64,000 nucleotides of DNA from a bacterium (lineage in GTDB: Bacteria; Patescibacteriota; Minisyncoccia; Phycocordibacterales; Phycocordibacteraceae), in contig JAHFML010000002.1 of NCBI GenBank assembly GCA_023269085.1, forward strand, positions 1,266 to 65,265. Reading direction: 5' to 3'. Under the pieces are notes generated by a model. It made no database searches and had not been told where the DNA came from. It worked only from the letters and a program-made list of their open reading frames with translations. Shown piece after piece: positions 51,714 to 57,963 of the stretch; position 1 is the stretch's first letter; every line of letters begins with the position of its first letter. Made by a program: the position numbers and the translations under genes.

Positions 51714-51715
51714 TT

Positions 51716-51790
51716 GGTGCGCGGTGAGGAACTCGAATCCCCGACCCTCTCAACGTCAATGAGATGCTCTACCAGCTGAGCTAACCGCGC
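51716..51790 (-). tRNA. tRNA-Val (anticodon GAC), CCA encoded
   Basis: Acceptor GCGCGGT/ACCGCGC, anticodon loop TTGACGT, T-loop GATTCGAGTTC. Confidence 0.85.
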
Positions 51791-52108
51791 AGTGCCAACA
51801 TTGTAGCAGAAACGAGAGAAAATAAAATAGGTGGTTGCGGATGATTGGCGATATGGTAGAATACAGGTGGCAGACAGATAGCGTGAGCGTTGTGCTCGCA
51901 CGTCGGCCTGCCGTCGCCCAAACATAGGAGAAAGAAACATGAGCGACAAGCAGAAAAAACCGACGACCGACGACAACGGCGTGAATTACGAGGAGGTGCT
52001 CGCTCGCTTCCTCGCAGCGAGTGCACGGTATTTTGCTTCTAAGTCCGGCGAACAAATCGCCTGATTTCATGAAGCCCGGCGGCCCACGTGGCCGCTTTTT
52101 CTATTTTG

Positions 52109-52180
52109 TGACCCCACGGGGAATCGAACCCCGATTTACGCCGTGAAAGGGCGCTGTCCTAACCGTTAGACGATAGGGCC
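52109..52180 (-). tRNA. tRNA-Glu (anticodon UUC)
   Basis: CGCCCTTTCACGGCG anticodon arm as in bacterial tRNA-Glu; acceptor with two G-U wobbles. Confidence 0.8.
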
Positions 52181-52251
52181 CTGCCTGCCGACAGACAAGC
52201 GTTGCTTCAACCTTACCATTTTCGACATGAAATGCTAGGATAGGGGGACAC

Positions 52252-52338
52252 GGAGAGGTGGCAGAGTGGTCGAATGCACTGGTTTCGAAAACCAGCAGGG
52301 GCGAAAGCTCCTCGTGGGTTCAAATCCCACCCTCTCCG
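52252..52338 (+). tRNA. tRNA-Ser (anticodon CGA)
   Basis: Acceptor GGAGAGG/CCTCTCC, anticodon loop TTCGAAA, long variable arm, T-loop GGTTCAAATCC. Confidence 0.85.
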
Positions 52339-53858
52339 CAGAAAGAAACTTCCGAATCCGAAAGGTGGGAAGAAGCCCGCGCCGAAGGCGCGGGAGTGGG
52401 CAAAAGATGCCGTCGCTCCGCGACGAATTGGGACGGGACGGGCGTGGCGAACTGGGCGGATTTGTCACGAACCAAGGGGTTCGTTCCGATTTTTTGGACG
52501 AACGATTTGATTTGGTACAAATCAGATGAGGGGGACAAAAAATTGGCTTGTTTCGTATCTAAAATCCATTCCCGCAAGGGTTCGACCCAATTATTTCTTC
52601 CGCGTTCAAAATCTTTCTCTTTTTGACGCAAAGCGGCGAGAGAGCGCATGAGCATATCTTTTCGCTTCAAGTAAATATCCTTTGGTACATCACCATCGAG
52701 ATACGTAGAAACCAGTTTTTCCATGCGCTCCTCGTTCGCTTTGATACTGTCGTAAAGATTTTGAACCTCGCTTTGCGACGCTCTAATTTCCTCACGCTCC
52801 CACACTTTCACTTTGTTCAACATCCAATCGGTATAGCGATCGCAAAGCGAAATTGTTTGAAGCCGTGCACAGAGTTGCCGTGCAAGCTCACTTTCTTGCA
52901 AATACGCTTGCGAACAGTGGCCGCGCTTTTTCGAGCACCGATAATACCGATAACGACCACCAGATTTTCCAGTTGCCCACTGCGCGGAAATCATCGAACC
53001 ACACTCGGCGCATCGAAAAAGACCAGTAAAAGGAAAATCATGCTTGATTTTCCTTTTACGCGGCCGTTCTTTCGTTTGCAATACTTTCTGCACGGCTTCA
53101 AACAATTGCGGAGAAATAATTGGCTCAAAGTTTCCATCAAACCATTCCTGTCCATGCTTCACAAAACCAAGATAGGCACGATGCGTAAGAAGCCGTTTGA
53201 TGGAAACTTTGGCAAGTGGCGTTTGGTTACGAGTCACCACGCCCAAGTCCGCCAAAAATTGAGCGAGCGAAATATAAGTGTGCGACCCCTTGGCGTATTC
53301 TTGAAAAGCTAGATTTACCACGCGAGCATTTGTCGGATGAGGCTCAATATTTCTCACCTTCGGATTATTGGTGTAGCCAAAGGGAGCTAAATTCAACCAT
53401 TCGCCTCGTCTCAATTTTTGGCGGACGCCACGCTTGATATTGTCAGATAGATTATCACTGTAATATTTCGATTGCCCAAACGCCACTTGCAACATAAAGA
53501 GCCCTTGCGGGGTTGGTTCAAACCAAAATGTCGGAAAGCGCAAAGACACAACCTTGTGAGTGTCTACGGCGTAAATAACTCGTCCACCGTCAATACTGTT
53601 ACGCGCGAGGCGGTCGGGATGCCACGCCAATATACCGACACCATCTAGTTTTTCAATTTTCGCGAACATTTCGCCGAACACCTCGCGCCCCGGTGTCTTT
53701 GCGCTTTTCGACTCTTGAAATTCCTCAAGAATTTCAAGATTTTCTTTACGCGCCAATTCTCGCAGTTCAAAAAGCTGTGCCTCAATGGACATCACTTGTC
53801 GGTCATCATCCTCGGTACTCTTACGCGCGTATAGAAAATATTTTGGTTTGATATTCAT
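52320..53858 (-). CDS. large serine recombinase (true start MNIKPKYFLYARKST at 53858; last ~45 codons lie within IR1-L)
   Basis: Resolvase catalytic domain YARKSTEDDDRQVMSIEAQ (Ser nucleophile), recombinase domain, Cys4 zinc ribbon CAECGS...YRCSKKRGHC, C-terminal coiled coil. Confidence 0.85.
   Translation of the reverse strand: MNIKPKYFLYARKSTEDDDRQVMSIEAQLFELRELARKENLEILEEFQESKSAKTPGREVFGEMFAKIEKLDGVGILAWHPDRLARNSIDGGRVIYAVDTHKVVSLRFPTFWFEPTPQGLFMLQVAFGQSKYYSDNLSDNIKRGVRQKLRRGEWLNLAPFGYTNNPKVRNIEPHPTNARVVNLAFQEYAKGSHTYISLAQFLADLGVVTRNQTPLAKVSIKRLLTHRAYLGFVKHGQEWFDGNFEPIISPQLFEAVQKVLQTKERPRKRKIKHDFPFTGLFRCAECGSMISAQWATGKSGGRYRYYRCSKKRGHCSQAYLQESELARQLCARLQTISLCDRYTDWMLNKVKVWEREEIRASQSEVQNLYDSIKANEERMEKLVSTYLDGDVPKDIYLKRKDMLMRSLAALRQKEKDFERGRNNWVEPLREWILDTKQANFLSPSSDLYQIKSFVQKIGTNPLVRDKSAQFATPVPSQFVAERRHLLPTPAPSARASSHLSDSEVSFCGEGGI
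52336..52466. repeat. IR1-L: 131-bp inverted repeat starting inside the last 3 nt of tRNA-Ser(CGA)
   Basis: Perfect reverse-complement match to 53883-54013. Contains internal hairpin CCCGCGCCgaaGGCGCGGG. Confidence 0.9.
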
Positions 53859-53882
53859 ATTGCTTTTAGATACGAAACAAGA

Positions 53883-54013
53883 GACAAATCCGCCCAGTTC
53901 GCCACGCCCGTCCCGTCCCAATTCGTCGCGGAGCGACGGCATCTTTTGCCCACTCCCGCGCCTTCGGCGCGGGCTTCTTCCCACCTTTCGGATTCGGAAG
54001 TTTCTTTCTGCGG
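53883..54013. repeat. IR1-R: inverted partner of IR1-L, 25 bp upstream of the recombinase start codon
   Basis: 131/131 identity as reverse complement. An extra 17-nt match (cttgtttcgtatctaaaa) lies just outside. Confidence 0.9.
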
Positions 54014-54254
54014 TGATGTATTAACCTTTGCGCGAACCCACTTCGCACGCGCGGAGCGCGTGGTGGCTTGAAACTGCACTGTACGCTCCGATTGCGTGGC
54101 GATGCGAACCAATGCGCCTCGGACACGCTCGCGGACTCGCGTGTGCAAAAACCAAAAAATTTCCTTGCATTTTCCTCGCGTCTCCTCCCCCCACCCCTCC
54201 ACCGCGAAGCGGAAAAAGAAATGGAAAGGAAATTTTTGGTTTTGCTTCGCCGTT
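54010..54254. repeat. IR2-L: 245-bp inverted repeat overlapping IR1-R by 4 nt
   Basis: Perfect reverse-complement match to 56021-56265; contains C-rich tract cctccccccacccctcc. Confidence 0.9.
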
Positions 54255-54347
54255 AGCAATTGAAAAAATCCATAAATAATGCTATCCTTGTTTTGTGAGC
54301 AAAGAAAGTAACGACTCATATTTCTATACTATCAAAAGTAGCATACT

Positions 54348-54545
54348 ATGGCAACTATATCACAGAACATAAAGCGTATCCGTACAAAACAAGGATTAAC
54401 GCAGGACGACTTGGCGAAGAAAGCGGACATTAAGTATTCTACTCTCACAAAAATTGAGGGTGGTGTCGTTACAAAACCAAGCGTTCAGACAATTCAAAAA
54501 ATCGCCAAGTCGTTAGGCGTTCCAATGGAGGAATTAGTAAAATAA
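54348..54545 (+). CDS. XRE-family helix-turn-helix transcriptional regulator (65 aa)
   Basis: QGLTQDDLAKKADIKYSTLTKIEGG matches the Cro/CI HTH. Confidence 0.8.
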   Translation: MATISQNIKRIRTKQGLTQDDLAKKADIKYSTLTKIEGGVVTKPSVQTIQKIAKSLGVPMEELVK

Positions 54546-54555
54546 ATTTACAAAT

Positions 54556-55041
54556 ATGGAAAATAAAAACAATACACCTGTTGAGATTGACGAGGTTAAG
54601 CTACAGGAAACTATCGCACGAGTTATAAAAGGCGAGGGTAGTGAGGAGGATATAAAATTTGTAAAAGACATCGAAGAACTCATAGGCGAACCAGTCATAG
54701 GAGAAAAATCGCGTATGCTCGCAGAAAAAATTAAAGCCAACAAAAATGCTTTGGCTCAAATTGTGGTAGAGAAAGATATTAAGTTGGAAAAGCTAGAAAA
54801 AGAAACAGCAGCTAAGTTGGCAGAAAATGACGCTGATTACGAGCGTAAATTGAAAGATTTGAATGTTTTGCAGTTTGATACAGAACAAAAAGCGAGAGCA
54901 AGGCAAACCAAAATGAGGCTGATTTGGGGAATTGTCGCTTTATGTGCAGTGACTTTTGTTACCAAAATTTTTGGCATAGGCATAGGATTATTTGTTTTAG
55001 GAATTTTTGCAGTCATTTTTTACGCCTTCAAGAACAGATAA
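54556..55041 (+). CDS. coiled-coil protein with C-terminal double-TM anchor (161 aa), hypothetical
   Basis: ORF track; AT-rich; 10 bp after the XRE gene. Confidence 0.45.
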   Translation: MENKNNTPVEIDEVKLQETIARVIKGEGSEEDIKFVKDIEELIGEPVIGEKSRMLAEKIKANKNALAQIVVEKDIKLEKLEKETAAKLAENDADYERKLKDLNVLQFDTEQKARARQTKMRLIWGIVALCAVTFVTKIFGIGIGLFVLGIFAVIFYAFKNR

Positions 55042-55044
55042 GGA

Positions 55045-55680
55045 ATGAAAACAAAAGCCATTTTTAGGAAGGCTCAAAAGGCGTTAGATGAAGAACGTAT
55101 AAAAGAAAAGGAGCTGAAAGATATAATCGGCTTTTGTTTTGATTCCGATCAAGAGTCAGAAAATTTTGTCCGGAAATGTTTGAAGAAAAACAAAACCAGA
55201 TGGATGTTGAATAGACTGCAATGGTTCGTTGAGTTAGCAGATTTTCAGAAATACGATAGCGTAAAAACTTTTTTCTTAATTGCTATTGCGGAAACAAATA
55301 TAAAGCTGTTTGAAAATCGATTCAAGGATAATTCAAATGAAGTGGCGGATGTTAAAAAGTTTTTTGCTCGATTTTCAAAACAAGATAAAGATGAATTACG
55401 ACGATATTTTTTCAAAACAGATAAGTTTTTAAATAAAAAATCTTTCAAATTTGATAAAGTTGTTGATATTTTACTTAATGTTCGCCACAGAGTTGTTCAT
55501 GGTAAAAATCATTACGATTTCAGATTCCATGACGGAAGCGATACTTTGATGAATATCATTTTTGGTGAAATAGGTACAAAAAATAAAAAGAGAAGAATTA
55601 GATATGAACTCGAAATCACATATAAGAATTTCAGGGAAATGATGATAAAAAATGCGATTGAAAATTTAAAAACAGCGTAA
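55045..55680 (+). CDS. hypothetical 211-aa protein with R-x4-H motif (RHRVVH), possible HEPN/Abi-like
   Basis: ORF track; AT-rich, Lys-rich; motif seen by eye only. Confidence 0.4.
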   Translation: MKTKAIFRKAQKALDEERIKEKELKDIIGFCFDSDQESENFVRKCLKKNKTRWMLNRLQWFVELADFQKYDSVKTFFLIAIAETNIKLFENRFKDNSNEVADVKKFFARFSKQDKDELRRYFFKTDKFLNKKSFKFDKVVDILLNVRHRVVHGKNHYDFRFHDGSDTLMNIIFGEIGTKNKKRRIRYELEITYKNFREMMIKNAIENLKTA

Positions 55681-56020
55681 GGTTTAGTAAGGGAGCAACC
55701 CTCGCCGTTTTATAATTTCTTCTAAAAACAGCGGGGTTGTTGTGCGCGCATTGGGTGGGTGGGGCAAGCACATATAGATTTGCTTGTGCCTTAGCACAAT
55801 TCATAATTCTTTGAGATACCACCAAACTCTCTCGGAGCCACAGAGCGAACACACGCAACGCCGAAGCAGCCAGCGCGAGCTTGCGAGCGGGCTATGCGTA
55901 GGCGTTTGTGTGTGGTTGTGTTACCACTAAACGCGGATACGAGAGCGCCTCGGTCGCCGTGAGGGCGGAGAAAAGAGCAACCAAAAGTGATAAACTAATA
56001 GTGCTCTTTTCGGAGACTGA

Positions 56021-56265
56021 AACGGCGAAGCAAAACCAAAAATTTCCTTTCCATTTCTTTTTCCGCTTCGCGGTGGAGGGGTGGGGGGAGGAGACGCGAG
56101 GAAAATGCAAGGAAATTTTTTGGTTTTTGCACACGCGAGTCCGCGAGCGTGTCCGAGGCGCATTGGTTCGCATCGCCACGCAATCGGAGCGTACAGTGCA
56201 GTTTCAAGCCACCACGCGCTCCGCGCGTGCGAAGTGGGTTCGCGCAAAGGTTAATACATCACCGC
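56021..56265. repeat. IR2-R: inverted partner of IR2-L, 77 bp upstream of the DedA-like gene
   Basis: 245/245 identity as reverse complement. Confidence 0.9.
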
Positions 56266-56341
56266 TTGAGTCTGCGAAAGCGGAAGGAGCGATGTGCCTG
56301 CGCACATCGCTCACCCCGCTAGTGATATACTAGAAACTATC

Positions 56342-56959
56342 ATGTCGGTCGAGACGCTCACGCAGCTGATACTGCAATATCGCTACTGGATTCTCGTCCC
56401 ACTCTCGCTCGCCGAGGGGCCGGTAGTCGCCTTCGTCGCGGGGACGCTCGCCTCGGTCGGCCTCTTCGATATTTATTTCCTTGCGGTTTTCTTTTTCATG
56501 CGCGACATGGGGCTCGATGGCGTCTACTATGCCGCGGGCTACTTCGGCGGCCGCACCAAGTTTGCCGAGCGGATGCTCACAAAAATCGGTATCACCGACG
56601 ACCATCTCGAGCGCGTGCGGACGCTCTGGGACAAGCGACCGGGCATGACGATGCTCATCGGCAAGCTCTCTTATGGCATCGCCTCGGCCTTCATTGTCGT
56701 GGCGGGGATGATACGCATGCCGCTCCGCGACTTCTTCGGCTATGGGGCGCTCGTCGCGGTGCTCGAGTATGGCTCGCTCCTCTTCGCGGGCTACTTCCTC
56801 GGCGCCTCATTCGGCGGGAGTGCGGCGAATGTTATCAACAACGCGCAATACGCCATCGGCATCGCGGCGATTATTATCTCAATCTACTACCTCGTGAGCT
56901 GGCGCGTCCGTGGCGAATTCTTAAAAGAAGATAAAGAGATTGAGGAGACGCCGGTATGA
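56342..56959 (+). CDS. DedA/TVP38 family membrane protein
   Basis: Characteristic DedA TM pattern, GKLSYGIASAF block. Confidence 0.7.
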   Translation: MSVETLTQLILQYRYWILVPLSLAEGPVVAFVAGTLASVGLFDIYFLAVFFFMRDMGLDGVYYAAGYFGGRTKFAERMLTKIGITDDHLERVRTLWDKRPGMTMLIGKLSYGIASAFIVVAGMIRMPLRDFFGYGALVAVLEYGSLLFAGYFLGASFGGSAANVINNAQYAIGIAAIIISIYYLVSWRVRGEFLKEDKEIEETPV

Positions 56960-57963
56960 AGAGGCTGCTCATCGTGACCGACGCGTGGGAGCCGCAGGTG
57001 AACGGCGTCGTGCGCGTTGTCCAAGCGCTCTTGCCAGAGCTTGCCGCACGCGGCTATGAGGTCAGCATCATCGAGCCGAGCCAATTCAGGAGAGTGGCGA
57101 TGCCTTTTTACCCCGAGATACCGCTCGCGCTCTTCGCGCGTCGCCGGGTCGCGCGCATGATTAGCGAGATACAACCTGATGCTGTCTGCCTCATGACCGA
57201 GGGGCCTTTGGGCTGGGCCGCGCGCGCGGCATGCCGCGCGCGCGGCATCCCCTTCGCCTCGTGGTACCACAGCCACTTCCAGCTCTATGTTGATGTGCGT
57301 TTGCGCGGGCTCTTGCGCCCGGCGCAGGCATTCATCCGCCATTTCCATAGCGCGGCGGCACACACTATCGTCTCGACCGAGAGCTTGAAGCAAGTGCTCG
57401 AAGCGGACGGTTTCAAGAATCTCGTCGTCGTGCCGCTCGGCGTCGACATCGAGCTCTTCACGCGCAATCCGAATCCGCCATTGCCGCCACTACCGTCGCC
57501 CGTCTTCGTCTACTTCGGCCGCTTAGCACCCGAGAAGAATGTCGAAGAATTCTTACAGCTCGCCTTACCGGGCACGAAGCTCGTCATCGGCGATGGCCCT
57601 TTACGAAAAAAATTAGAAGAAAAATATGGCGGCACGCATAAGTTTGTTGGCTATAAACGAGGAGTCGAGCTTGTCGACTGGCTCTCACTCGCGGACGTGT
57701 TCGTCTTCCCCTCGCTGACCGAGACCTTCGGCCTCGTGGTTGTCGAAGCTCTTGCGTGCGGCCTCGCGGTCGCGGCGCACGATGTCATGGGCCCGCGCGA
57801 CATCATTGAGCAAGGCGTTGACGGCTATCTCTCCGACGACCTCCAGAGCGCCGCGCTTCAGTGTCTCGACCTCTCGCGCGCGGCCTGTCGCAAAAAGGCG
57901 GAGCAATATAGTTGGTCGCACTCGGCCGATGAGTTTATCAAGATACTCACCAAACTAGCCTAG
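56956..57963 (+). CDS. GT4-family glycosyltransferase
   Basis: C-terminal EX7E-like block FPSLTETFGLVVVEALACGLAV. Confidence 0.75.
   Translation: MKRLLIVTDAWEPQVNGVVRVVQALLPELAARGYEVSIIEPSQFRRVAMPFYPEIPLALFARRRVARMISEIQPDAVCLMTEGPLGWAARAACRARGIPFASWYHSHFQLYVDVRLRGLLRPAQAFIRHFHSAAAHTIVSTESLKQVLEADGFKNLVVVPLGVDIELFTRNPNPPLPPLPSPVFVYFGRLAPEKNVEEFLQLALPGTKLVIGDGPLRKKLEEKYGGTHKFVGYKRGVELVDWLSLADVFVFPSLTETFGLVVVEALACGLAVAAHDVMGPRDIIEQGVDGYLSDDLQSAALQCLDLSRAACRKKAEQYSWSHSADEFIKILTKLA

Follow-up and report, generated by a model that had tools for sequence, protein, structure and literature searches.

The DNA adjoining the tRNA-Ser(CGA) gene in the 64,000-nt window that we analysed (part of the patescibacterial contig JAHFML010000002.1; all coordinates are positions in this window) is most probably an intact 3.9-kb site-specific integrative element, which would have been inserted at the extreme 3' end of the tRNA gene by a large serine recombinase (LSR) and which carries an inverted copy of its attachment site, attP, inside it. 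The identity of the element and the logic of its sites are well supported. An earlier note on this DNA, made from the sequence alone and referred to here as the original prediction, had reported two pairs of long inverted repeats (IRs), IR1 around an LSR gene and IR2 around a cargo segment, and had offered two readings of them: a two-module invertible switch, or an IR-bounded, LSR-driven mobile element at tRNA-Ser. The second of these is borne out by a survey of the element family and by the logic of the junctions.

Three junctions sharing one core

A repeat search recovered both repeats where the original prediction had placed them. The IR1 arms (52333–52466 and 53883–54016) are 134 nt long and 99% identical, being perfect over 131 nt from position 52336 (52336–52466 and 53883–54013), and the IR2 arms (54010–54254 and 56021–56265) are identical over 245 nt. 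The left arm of IR1 begins, as had been noted, within the last nucleotides of tRNA-Ser, which it overlaps by 4–7 nt (ARAGORN, Rfam). Both repeats therefore exist, but they are not independent of one another, a point that the original prediction had missed: IR1-R and IR2-L abut with 4 nt in common and so form the single 372-bp block A'·GCGG·B (53883–54254), whose reverse complement, B'·CCGC·A, is the right end of the element fused to its left end.

Read in the direction of the tRNA, the locus thus contains three junctions, S1 (tRNA·CCGC·A), S2 (B'·CCGC·A, internal and inverted) and S3 (B'·CCGC·host). Judged from their alignment, this is the pattern of attL, attP and attR respectively, with tRNA·CCGC·host as the corresponding attB, and IR1 and IR2 are then to be understood as the arms that attL and attR each share with the internal inverted attP. 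The order along the locus is attL (tRNA|A), recombinase, inverted attP (A'|B), cargo, attR (B'|dedA). The tetranucleotide CCGC, the last nucleotides of tRNA-Ser, is common to all three sites, so that the element is bounded by sites sharing the 3'-terminal nucleotides of its target and leaves the tRNA intact. Its composition and gene content are foreign to the flanks: GC content is 45% in the recombinase segment and 37% in the cargo compared to 58–60% on either side (63% and 55% in the A and B arms), and the cargo varies among related loci.

A family with a fixed layout

A homologue search returned 5,700 recombinase homologues at E ≤ 1e-20. The best 120 are 70–93% identical, and those among them that carry a source name are mostly annotated Patescibacteria. 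A scan of one genome per species yielded 571 relatives; the best 80 were examined, and 62 loci had enough flanking sequence to be informative. The original prediction had suggested a search for homologues with flanking IRs, and such homologues proved to be the rule, with a repeat of at least 100 nt bracketing the recombinase at 56 of the 62 loci. It is 131 nt long at 24 loci, at least 97% identical at 44 and perfect at 25. At 48 loci the distal arm directly adjoins the 3' end of a tRNA gene convergent with the recombinase, the targets being tRNA-Ser (20), tRNA-Glu (18), tRNA-Arg and tRNA-Leu (3 each) and tRNA-Gly, -Ala, -Lys and -Pro (1 each). A second repeat of 91–298 nt, bracketing 1.1–4.1 kb of low-GC cargo, is present at at least 17 loci with enough upstream sequence.

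The three junctions were aligned for 18 loci, and in each of these S1 and S2 share their right half and S2 and S3 their left half. IR2 and IR1 overlap by 4–14 nt in 17 of the 18, where a core of the same length that includes the last bases of the tRNA is common to all three sites; the exception is L076, where the arms abut without overlap. The core sequence follows the target, being CCGC(A) for tRNA-Ser, TCACA for tRNA-Glu and GCACA for tRNA-Leu, tRNA-Gly and the tRNA-Arg target of L027. The same layout is found in closed chromosomes (L031, OY970382.1; L043, CP060229.1), and LSRs only 38–42% identical to the one studied here are also IR-bracketed (the second copy in L086, L026 and L020), so that it has been kept across recombinases about 40% identical and at least eight tRNA targets. 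On these alignments the layout of the family is fixed: tRNA, A, recombinase, A', B, XRE gene with variable cargo, B', host. Recombinases more than 90% identical occur in several lineages of Patescibacteria. No relatives of the recombinase were found among IMG/VR viral contigs, and a phage origin was rejected on this ground.

Evidence for recombination at the core and proposed recognition of the target

Locus L086 contains two different elements in tandem at one tRNA-Ser, and the outer element's arm A meets the inner element's arm B exactly at the core (hybrid A1|B2). Further arrays were found at L170, L030, L026, L017, L025 and L154. These arrays suggest that attL itself may serve as a target.

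Arm B' contains the invariant motif GGTTCG(C/A)GCAAAGG, in which GGTTC is 23 nt away from the discriminator-base position, compared to 17 nt in the tRNA T-loop. In serine integrases the second DNA-binding domain (DBD2) reads the same motif in both kinds of half-site, 4–5 bp nearer the centre for attB than for attP (PMC11722253), and the shift of 6 nt seen here approximately fits this rule for P- and B-type half-sites. The shift suggests that the recombinase recognises the universal tRNA T-arm, which would account for the many tRNA targets. No conservation is seen in the host-side half of the target in the 18-locus alignment; an enzyme needing little from the other side of its target could likewise both use many tRNA genes and insert into an existing attL.

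The recombinase and its gene

The domain content proposed for the 512-aa LSR was confirmed by profile search: PF00239 covers residues 9–155 (E = 1e-20), with the serine-nucleophile motif YARKS14T readable in the sequence, and PF07508 (residues 176–263) and the zinc ribbon PF13408 (residues 277–329) both score above the Pfam cut-offs. The closest solved structure in the PDB is SPbeta integrase (E = 1e-11, alignment over residues 9–455), and the protein reaches no NCBIfam equivalog. The placement of the gene relative to IR1 was also as described, with the last ~44 codons inside IR1-L and the ATG 24 nt from IR1-R. The open reading frame (ORF) has no stop codon of its own inside the element; it crosses arm A and two terminator-like sites (hairpin plus T-run) and ends antisense within the tRNA. 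Its extreme C-terminus is thus set by the DNA past the core, being GEGGI* here and 14 aa longer if arm B comes next.

In ~12–14 of ~100 close homologues the ORF continues beyond arm A into a B arm and acquires a tail of the type xFARTxF. The ten that read into a canonical B arm (P0001, P0003, P0040, P0043, P0060, P0064, P0067, P0102, P0105 and P0151) are found only on contigs of 1.7–4.6 kb, about the size of one element, and two that read into variant B arms (P0002, P0004) occur also on contigs of 71–98 kb. The short contigs may represent free circles, collapsed identical tandem copies or walk-backs in the assembly graph. L085, a 3.9-kb contig with a 399-bp IR, was considered as proof of a free circle and set aside, as its end folds back into the XRE side and may be a graph walk-back; it points to walk-back as the origin of the short contigs.

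A second, short complementarity links the two ends of the gene. The leader between IR1-R and the ATG contains a 20-mer (20–23 nt) that is matched in reverse complement by the codons for WILDTKQ, ~240 nt before the end of the gene and 1.3 kb from the leader; the pair co-varies across many loci, and in the gene copy an 80-bp indel separates the two relative to the main repeat. The hairpins in arm A lie at conserved positions but differ in sequence from locus to locus, and each is followed by a T-rich run in the direction of the gene. They were detected with a per-sequence hairpin scan, as RNAalifold found nothing on the aligned A arms because the hairpins shift in the alignment.

Identity of the arms

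The original prediction took the perfect repeats as a sign of very recent duplication, which is not needed to explain them, since perfect arms are usual in a family whose recombinases are 40–94% identical. A arms have a median identity of ~66% between loci compared to ~100% within loci, and on this comparison the arms are not young but must be homogenised or regenerated, that is, subject to concerted evolution. Mismatches in imperfect arms show no G:U bias (67 compatible with pairing in the sense strand, 62 in the antisense strand, 162 neither), which argues for constraint at the level of DNA and not of an RNA duplex. Pairing between the leader and the 3' end of the mRNA was therefore rejected as the reason for the 131-nt arm of IR1, although it is still a candidate for the 20-mer. 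We infer that frequent gene conversion keeps the arms identical, which fits their GC content of 55–63% compared to 37–45% in the unique segments.

Proposed mechanism and the role of the internal site

In the mechanism that we propose, integration at tRNA 3' ends would proceed by exchange between attP and attB at the CCGC core, the recombinase reading the GGTTC of the tRNA T-arm as a B-type half-site and the same motif, 6 bp further out in B', as a P-type half-site. Re-use of the tRNA-proximal site would lead to tandem stacking. The extra inverted attP, which lies between the divergent recombinase and XRE genes, would be kept there, and an excised circle would carry two opposed attP sites. Serine integrases integrate unidirectionally and need a directionality factor to excise, for which the XRE protein, as the conserved cargo protein, is the only candidate here.

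As to why a complete attP should be retained, by analogy with other systems we tentatively suggest that it might be a control site at which the recombinase binds to regulate the divergent promoters (autoregulation), and also a conversion template that keeps the attL and attR arms functional, although we would not call this role likely. Alternatively it may be used for rare inversion, in a free circle or on single-stranded DNA. Bolder still, and in our view rather doubtful, is the proposal that these 'double-attP' cassettes form a distinct, Patescibacteria-specific class of mobile element in which the internal attP (~370 bp, rich in hairpins and held identical to the ends) is mechanistically required for spread and is more than a regulatory duplicate, with a broad-host-range recombinase that reads the T-arm; the required site might then act as a strand-independent structure on single-stranded DNA taken up by the cell, or as the flipping site of a circle resembling the yeast 2-micron plasmid.

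Several points weigh against the integrative-element interpretation and the roles proposed for its internal site. No empty site (tRNA|dedA, with ...CCCTCTCCGC directly followed by TTGAGTCTGCG) was recovered, exact look-ups of the flanking host proteins having led solely to contigs with breaks at the IRs, nor was any unambiguous junction of a circle recovered; the element has the structure of a site-specific integrative element at a tRNA gene, and the mobility of this copy, like the activity, site requirements and directionality of its recombinase, is predicted from sequence. The 6-nt offset exceeds the 4–5 bp reported for the integrases studied so far. Part of the 'perfect' identity of the arms may be due to collapse by the assembler. 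A regulatory site would leave unexplained why identity is kept over 376 bp and not over ~50 bp, and none of the roles proposed for the internal attP explains why a circle with two identical attP sites should yield the alternative isomer in at most 1–3% of cases.

Alternative explanations

In the switch reading, the recombinase would invert the DNA between attL and the internal site, or the cargo, or both, with phase variation of the cargo or of read-through into dedA and the glycosyltransferases. Inverted sites with identical cores do provide the geometry for inversion by a serine recombinase, and the C segment of phage P1 likewise has long IRs with crossover sites at their outer ends. However, one orientation of the recombinase segment and the cargo, relative to the tRNA and to each other, is maintained across ~100 independent loci. 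Among the genomes, 54 loci have the canonical arrangement, convergent with the tRNA, compared to one or two flipped candidates (L065, L051). An exact-match scan of metagenome contigs at the end of arm A gave 15 (+2) junctions of gene tail, A and tRNA and 14 (+1) of leader, A and B, both canonical, together with one array junction (L170) and one of leader, A and tRNA (L117), so that at least 29 of 31 classifiable junctions were canonical. The XRE gene is upstream and divergent in 18 of 19 cases. Recombinase copies in all seven tandem arrays (L017, L025, L026, L043, L056, L086, L154) face the same way, which is telling because both orientations of the distal units would have an identical local context. 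L117 was discarded as a flipped state because it is a truncated remnant in which only the first seven codons of the gene survive, and L051 because of its low coverage and a contig end that is a 34-nt fold-back, leaving L065, a k141 contig with a full-length recombinase in flipped position directly downstream of tRNA-Glu, in favour of the switch. Inversion would moreover alter no coding sequence, and, set beside Hin and Gin, the enzyme is a 512-aa integrase-type protein inside the segment and not an invertase of ~190 aa with a C-terminal helix-turn-helix (HTH) outside it, and both orientations are not seen. We therefore regard the switch as quite improbable; routine flipping is not supported, and rare inversion may still occur. 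The outward-facing promoter that the original prediction had placed in IR2 (TTCGCG..17..TAATAC) was not confirmed: the hexamers are 7 nt apart and a promoter scan returned nothing there.

It is almost inconceivable that one copy of each repeat is a product of assembly, whether by collapse, duplication or chimeric join, a possibility that the original prediction had raised against itself. Repeat collapse can indeed produce exact identity where a repeat exceeds the assembler's k; many relatives' contigs stop 100–400 bp upstream of the recombinase, and some short contigs have fold-back ends. However, a k141 contig assembled independently by MEGAHIT from another sample passes through the 131-bp IR1 (131 < 141) in the same orientation and with no branch, which also speaks against the switch; contigs of three other data sets (Logan, ENA) end symmetrically inside IR2 at both ends of the cargo; closed chromosomes hold both repeats; the arms of L030 are 96% identical and hence not collapsed; and L001 has one real mismatch in 144 nt of its IR2 arm. 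Nor do we give much credence to a chance composite of two unrelated or decayed insertions that left IRs in a functionless arrangement. Tandem accretion at the same tRNA does occur, and at some loci arms decayed to 77–93% identity surround intact genes, but the recurrence of the bracketing repeat at 56 of 62 loci, with the same arm length (131 nt at 24 of them) and a 4–14-nt overlap, across recombinases 40–94% identical and eight tRNA targets makes this very unlikely. Somewhat less remote than the switch, yet still improbable, is the view that the inverted duplication is needed in a free form, either as a 2-micron-like circle that flips for amplification or in a strand-independent role on single-stranded DNA taken up by these naturally competent bacteria, the hairpin-rich arms then serving as priming or promoter structures on either strand that enters. 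The excised circle would have the 2-micron topology, the arms greatly exceed a recombinase site in length and are dense with position-conserved hairpins, the canonical read-through ORFs lie on contigs of at most 4.6 kb, and near-identical recombinases in several lineages have no phage relatives. The cargo has, however, no conserved replication or transfer gene, no circle was recovered, the recombinase is of the serine and not the tyrosine type, the short contigs could equally be collapsed arrays or walk-backs, as L085 illustrates, and by our reasoning a folded single strand could be integrated by conservative serine recombination only if the chromosome were broken. An integrative element with an internal attP thus remains the reading that we prefer.

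Relation to known systems

The recombinase shares its resolvase catalytic, recombinase and zinc-ribbon domains with those of the phiC31, Bxb1, A118/LI and SPbeta SprA elements, and the element shares with LSR elements and prophages a short common core, a motif at different distances in the half-sites and a recombinase gene beside an att site. Known LSR elements keep no attP after integration, whereas the family described here keeps a complete inverted attP between recombinase and cargo; it also differs from them in its size (3–6 kb), in its lack of phage genes and in its use of many tRNA 3' ends as targets. Serine integrases usually target protein-coding genes. The Islander work attributes tRNA targets to tyrosine integrases (PMC4383910). 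In Dehalococcoides, serine-recombinase islands occupy the tmRNA gene (PMC3146451); these and the SCC/ccr cassettes resemble the family in targeting small-RNA genes or gene 3' ends, in using a serine recombinase and in tandem accretion, but they are described as flanked by direct repeats of the target end, and neither an internal inverted site nor an IR bracketing the recombinase is reported for them in the portions of the sources available.

Inversion systems offer a further comparison. Hin, Gin, Cin and Pin are small invertases encoded outside the segment that they invert; they use an enhancer, and both orientations coexist. The IRs of the P1 C segment are ~0.6 kb long. These systems and the family here have in common a serine recombinase, inverted sites and, for P1, crossover at the outer ends of long IRs; here, however, the enzyme is of the integrase type and lies within the segment, and one orientation is essentially fixed. 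The yeast 2-micron circle is a replicating plasmid in which flipping by the tyrosine recombinase Flp serves copy-number amplification, and the likeness is that an excised circle here would have two site-bearing long IRs and two unique regions, with the recombinase in one of them, although neither an origin nor a free circle is evident here. In Tn3 and gamma-delta, res lies between tnpA and tnpR. The position of the internal attP between the XRE and recombinase genes recalls both this arrangement and intS of KplE1, for which autoregulation via its own recombination site is described (PMC2951348). In those two systems the regulatory site is the working site, whereas the internal attP is an additional copy with no evident use in recombination.

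No description of the double-attP architecture, or of this recombinase family in Patescibacteria, was found in the literature searched, whose coverage was incomplete so that a prior description is possible; to that extent the claim of the original prediction that the architecture had not been described holds. We regard the family as a widespread and apparently undescribed variant of the serine-integrase integrative element, new in its architecture. Patescibacteria (the candidate phyla radiation, CPR) account for a substantial part of bacterial diversity, and very little is known of their gene exchange; a family with thousands of members, found at more than 90% identity across lineages and carrying varied accessory genes, may be a principal route by which genes move within the phylum. 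Current models of serine-integrase directionality do not predict that an integrated element should retain a full attP, inverted and identical to its ends. An integrase that reads the conserved T-arm together with a short, evolvable core could be put to use for insertion in a broad range of hosts. The layout accounts, too, for the repeated breaks in assemblies of CPR genomes: ~30 of the 80 genome contigs examined (L005–L084) end within the internal attP or just beyond it, 100–400 bp upstream of the start of the recombinase gene, and the family is a systematic cause of such breaks in Patescibacteria assemblies.

Cargo and flanking genes

The features of the element are listed in Table 1. The cargo ORFs and the 340-bp non-coding stretch were as originally described. 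Only the XRE gene is conserved among cargo genes throughout the family, where it always adjoins the proximal arm of IR2 and is divergent from the recombinase. The 211-aa protein has the four-helix HEPN fold with an R-x4-6-H motif and is a putative RNase toxin or abortive-infection protein. In the cargo segments of other members (L007/L025, L021, L080) there are genes for an AAA_15 (OLD/AbiEii-like) ATPase, which like the HEPN protein is of a defence type, for an aromatic amino acid lyase, for a fusion of GTP cyclohydrolase II with a methyltransferase and for large secreted proteins with repeats. The non-coding backbone beside the distal arm contains a stem-loop (55699–55736) with a 12-bp stem and compensatory changes elsewhere in the family (e.g. 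CCCC/GGGG to GTTTT/AAAAC in L021); it has no match in Rfam and could be a cargo terminator or another cis element.

Table 1. Features of the element and its borders, with predicted attachment sites (window coordinates)
Feature	Position	Strand	Evidence or remark
tRNA-Ser(CGA), integration target	52252..52339	+	ARAGORN; Rfam RF00005, 61 bits
T-arm and acceptor 3' strand of tRNA-Ser(CGA), predicted bacterial-type half-site 'T'			
attL core CCGC (S1 = T|A)	52336..52339	+	three-site alignment; also at 56262-56265, and reverse-complemented at 54010-54013
IR1-L, 'A' arm	52336..52466	.	repeat search
Element-side half-site adjoining the core in the A arm			GAAACTTCC
GC hairpin H2 in A arm	52376-52394		
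GC hairpin H1 in A arm	52410-52426		
Large serine recombinase, 512 aa	52320..53858	-	Pfam PF00239+PF07508+PF13408
Codons WILDTKQ	52547..52569	.	reverse complement of 53859-53881, 21/23 match
Leader 20-mer (20-23 nt) between IR1-R and ATG	53859..53881	.	
Internal complete attP, inverted (S2 = A'·GCGG·B), IR1-R + IR2-L	53883..54254	-	repeat search, alignment
Conserved B half-site	54014..54039	.	reverse complement of GGTTCGCGCAAAGG at 54025-54038
XRE-family HTH protein, 65 aa	54348..54545	+	Pfam
161-aa protein, C-terminal membrane segment	54556..55041	+	no family match
211-aa HEPN-fold protein, invariant R147-x4-H152	55045..55680	+	
Conserved non-coding backbone beside distal arm (~340 nt)	55684..56020	.	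found in at least 10 loci
IR2-R, B' arm	56021..56265	.	ends in attR core CCGC 56262-56265, then host DNA upstream of dedA
DedA/VTT-like host gene, right flank ('D' side of target)	56294..56959	+	Pfam; synteny with L011

The dedA-like gene is followed by GT4 and GT2 glycosyltransferases. Between 51500 and 57000 of the window, tRNAs were the only matches to known RNA families in Rfam. A possible decayed remnant of an A arm after tRNA-Glu (~52040–52107) was rejected, its alignment score of 22 not differing significantly from that of shuffled sequences (mean 20.3 ± 2.1).

Related hosts carry the element at tRNA-Glu and not at tRNA-Ser (L064). In L064 (4863–5795) the divergent tRNA-Glu/tRNA-Ser pair is inverted relative to 51715–52339 of the window, and in L011 (1802–3752) dedA and the GT4 gene (56294–57963 in the window) come after tRNA-Glu rather than after the far end of the element; comparison of these arrangements suggests element-associated inversions of the tRNA pair. 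In L001 (1–3443; ENA ERZ27279563, k141_5726211) the same cargo and B arm are present, but the distal arm is only 144 nt long, with its one mismatch, and is joined to different DNA (a cupredoxin-like gene) at a break corresponding to 56164/56165 of the window. The distal arm of L030 is likewise shortened.

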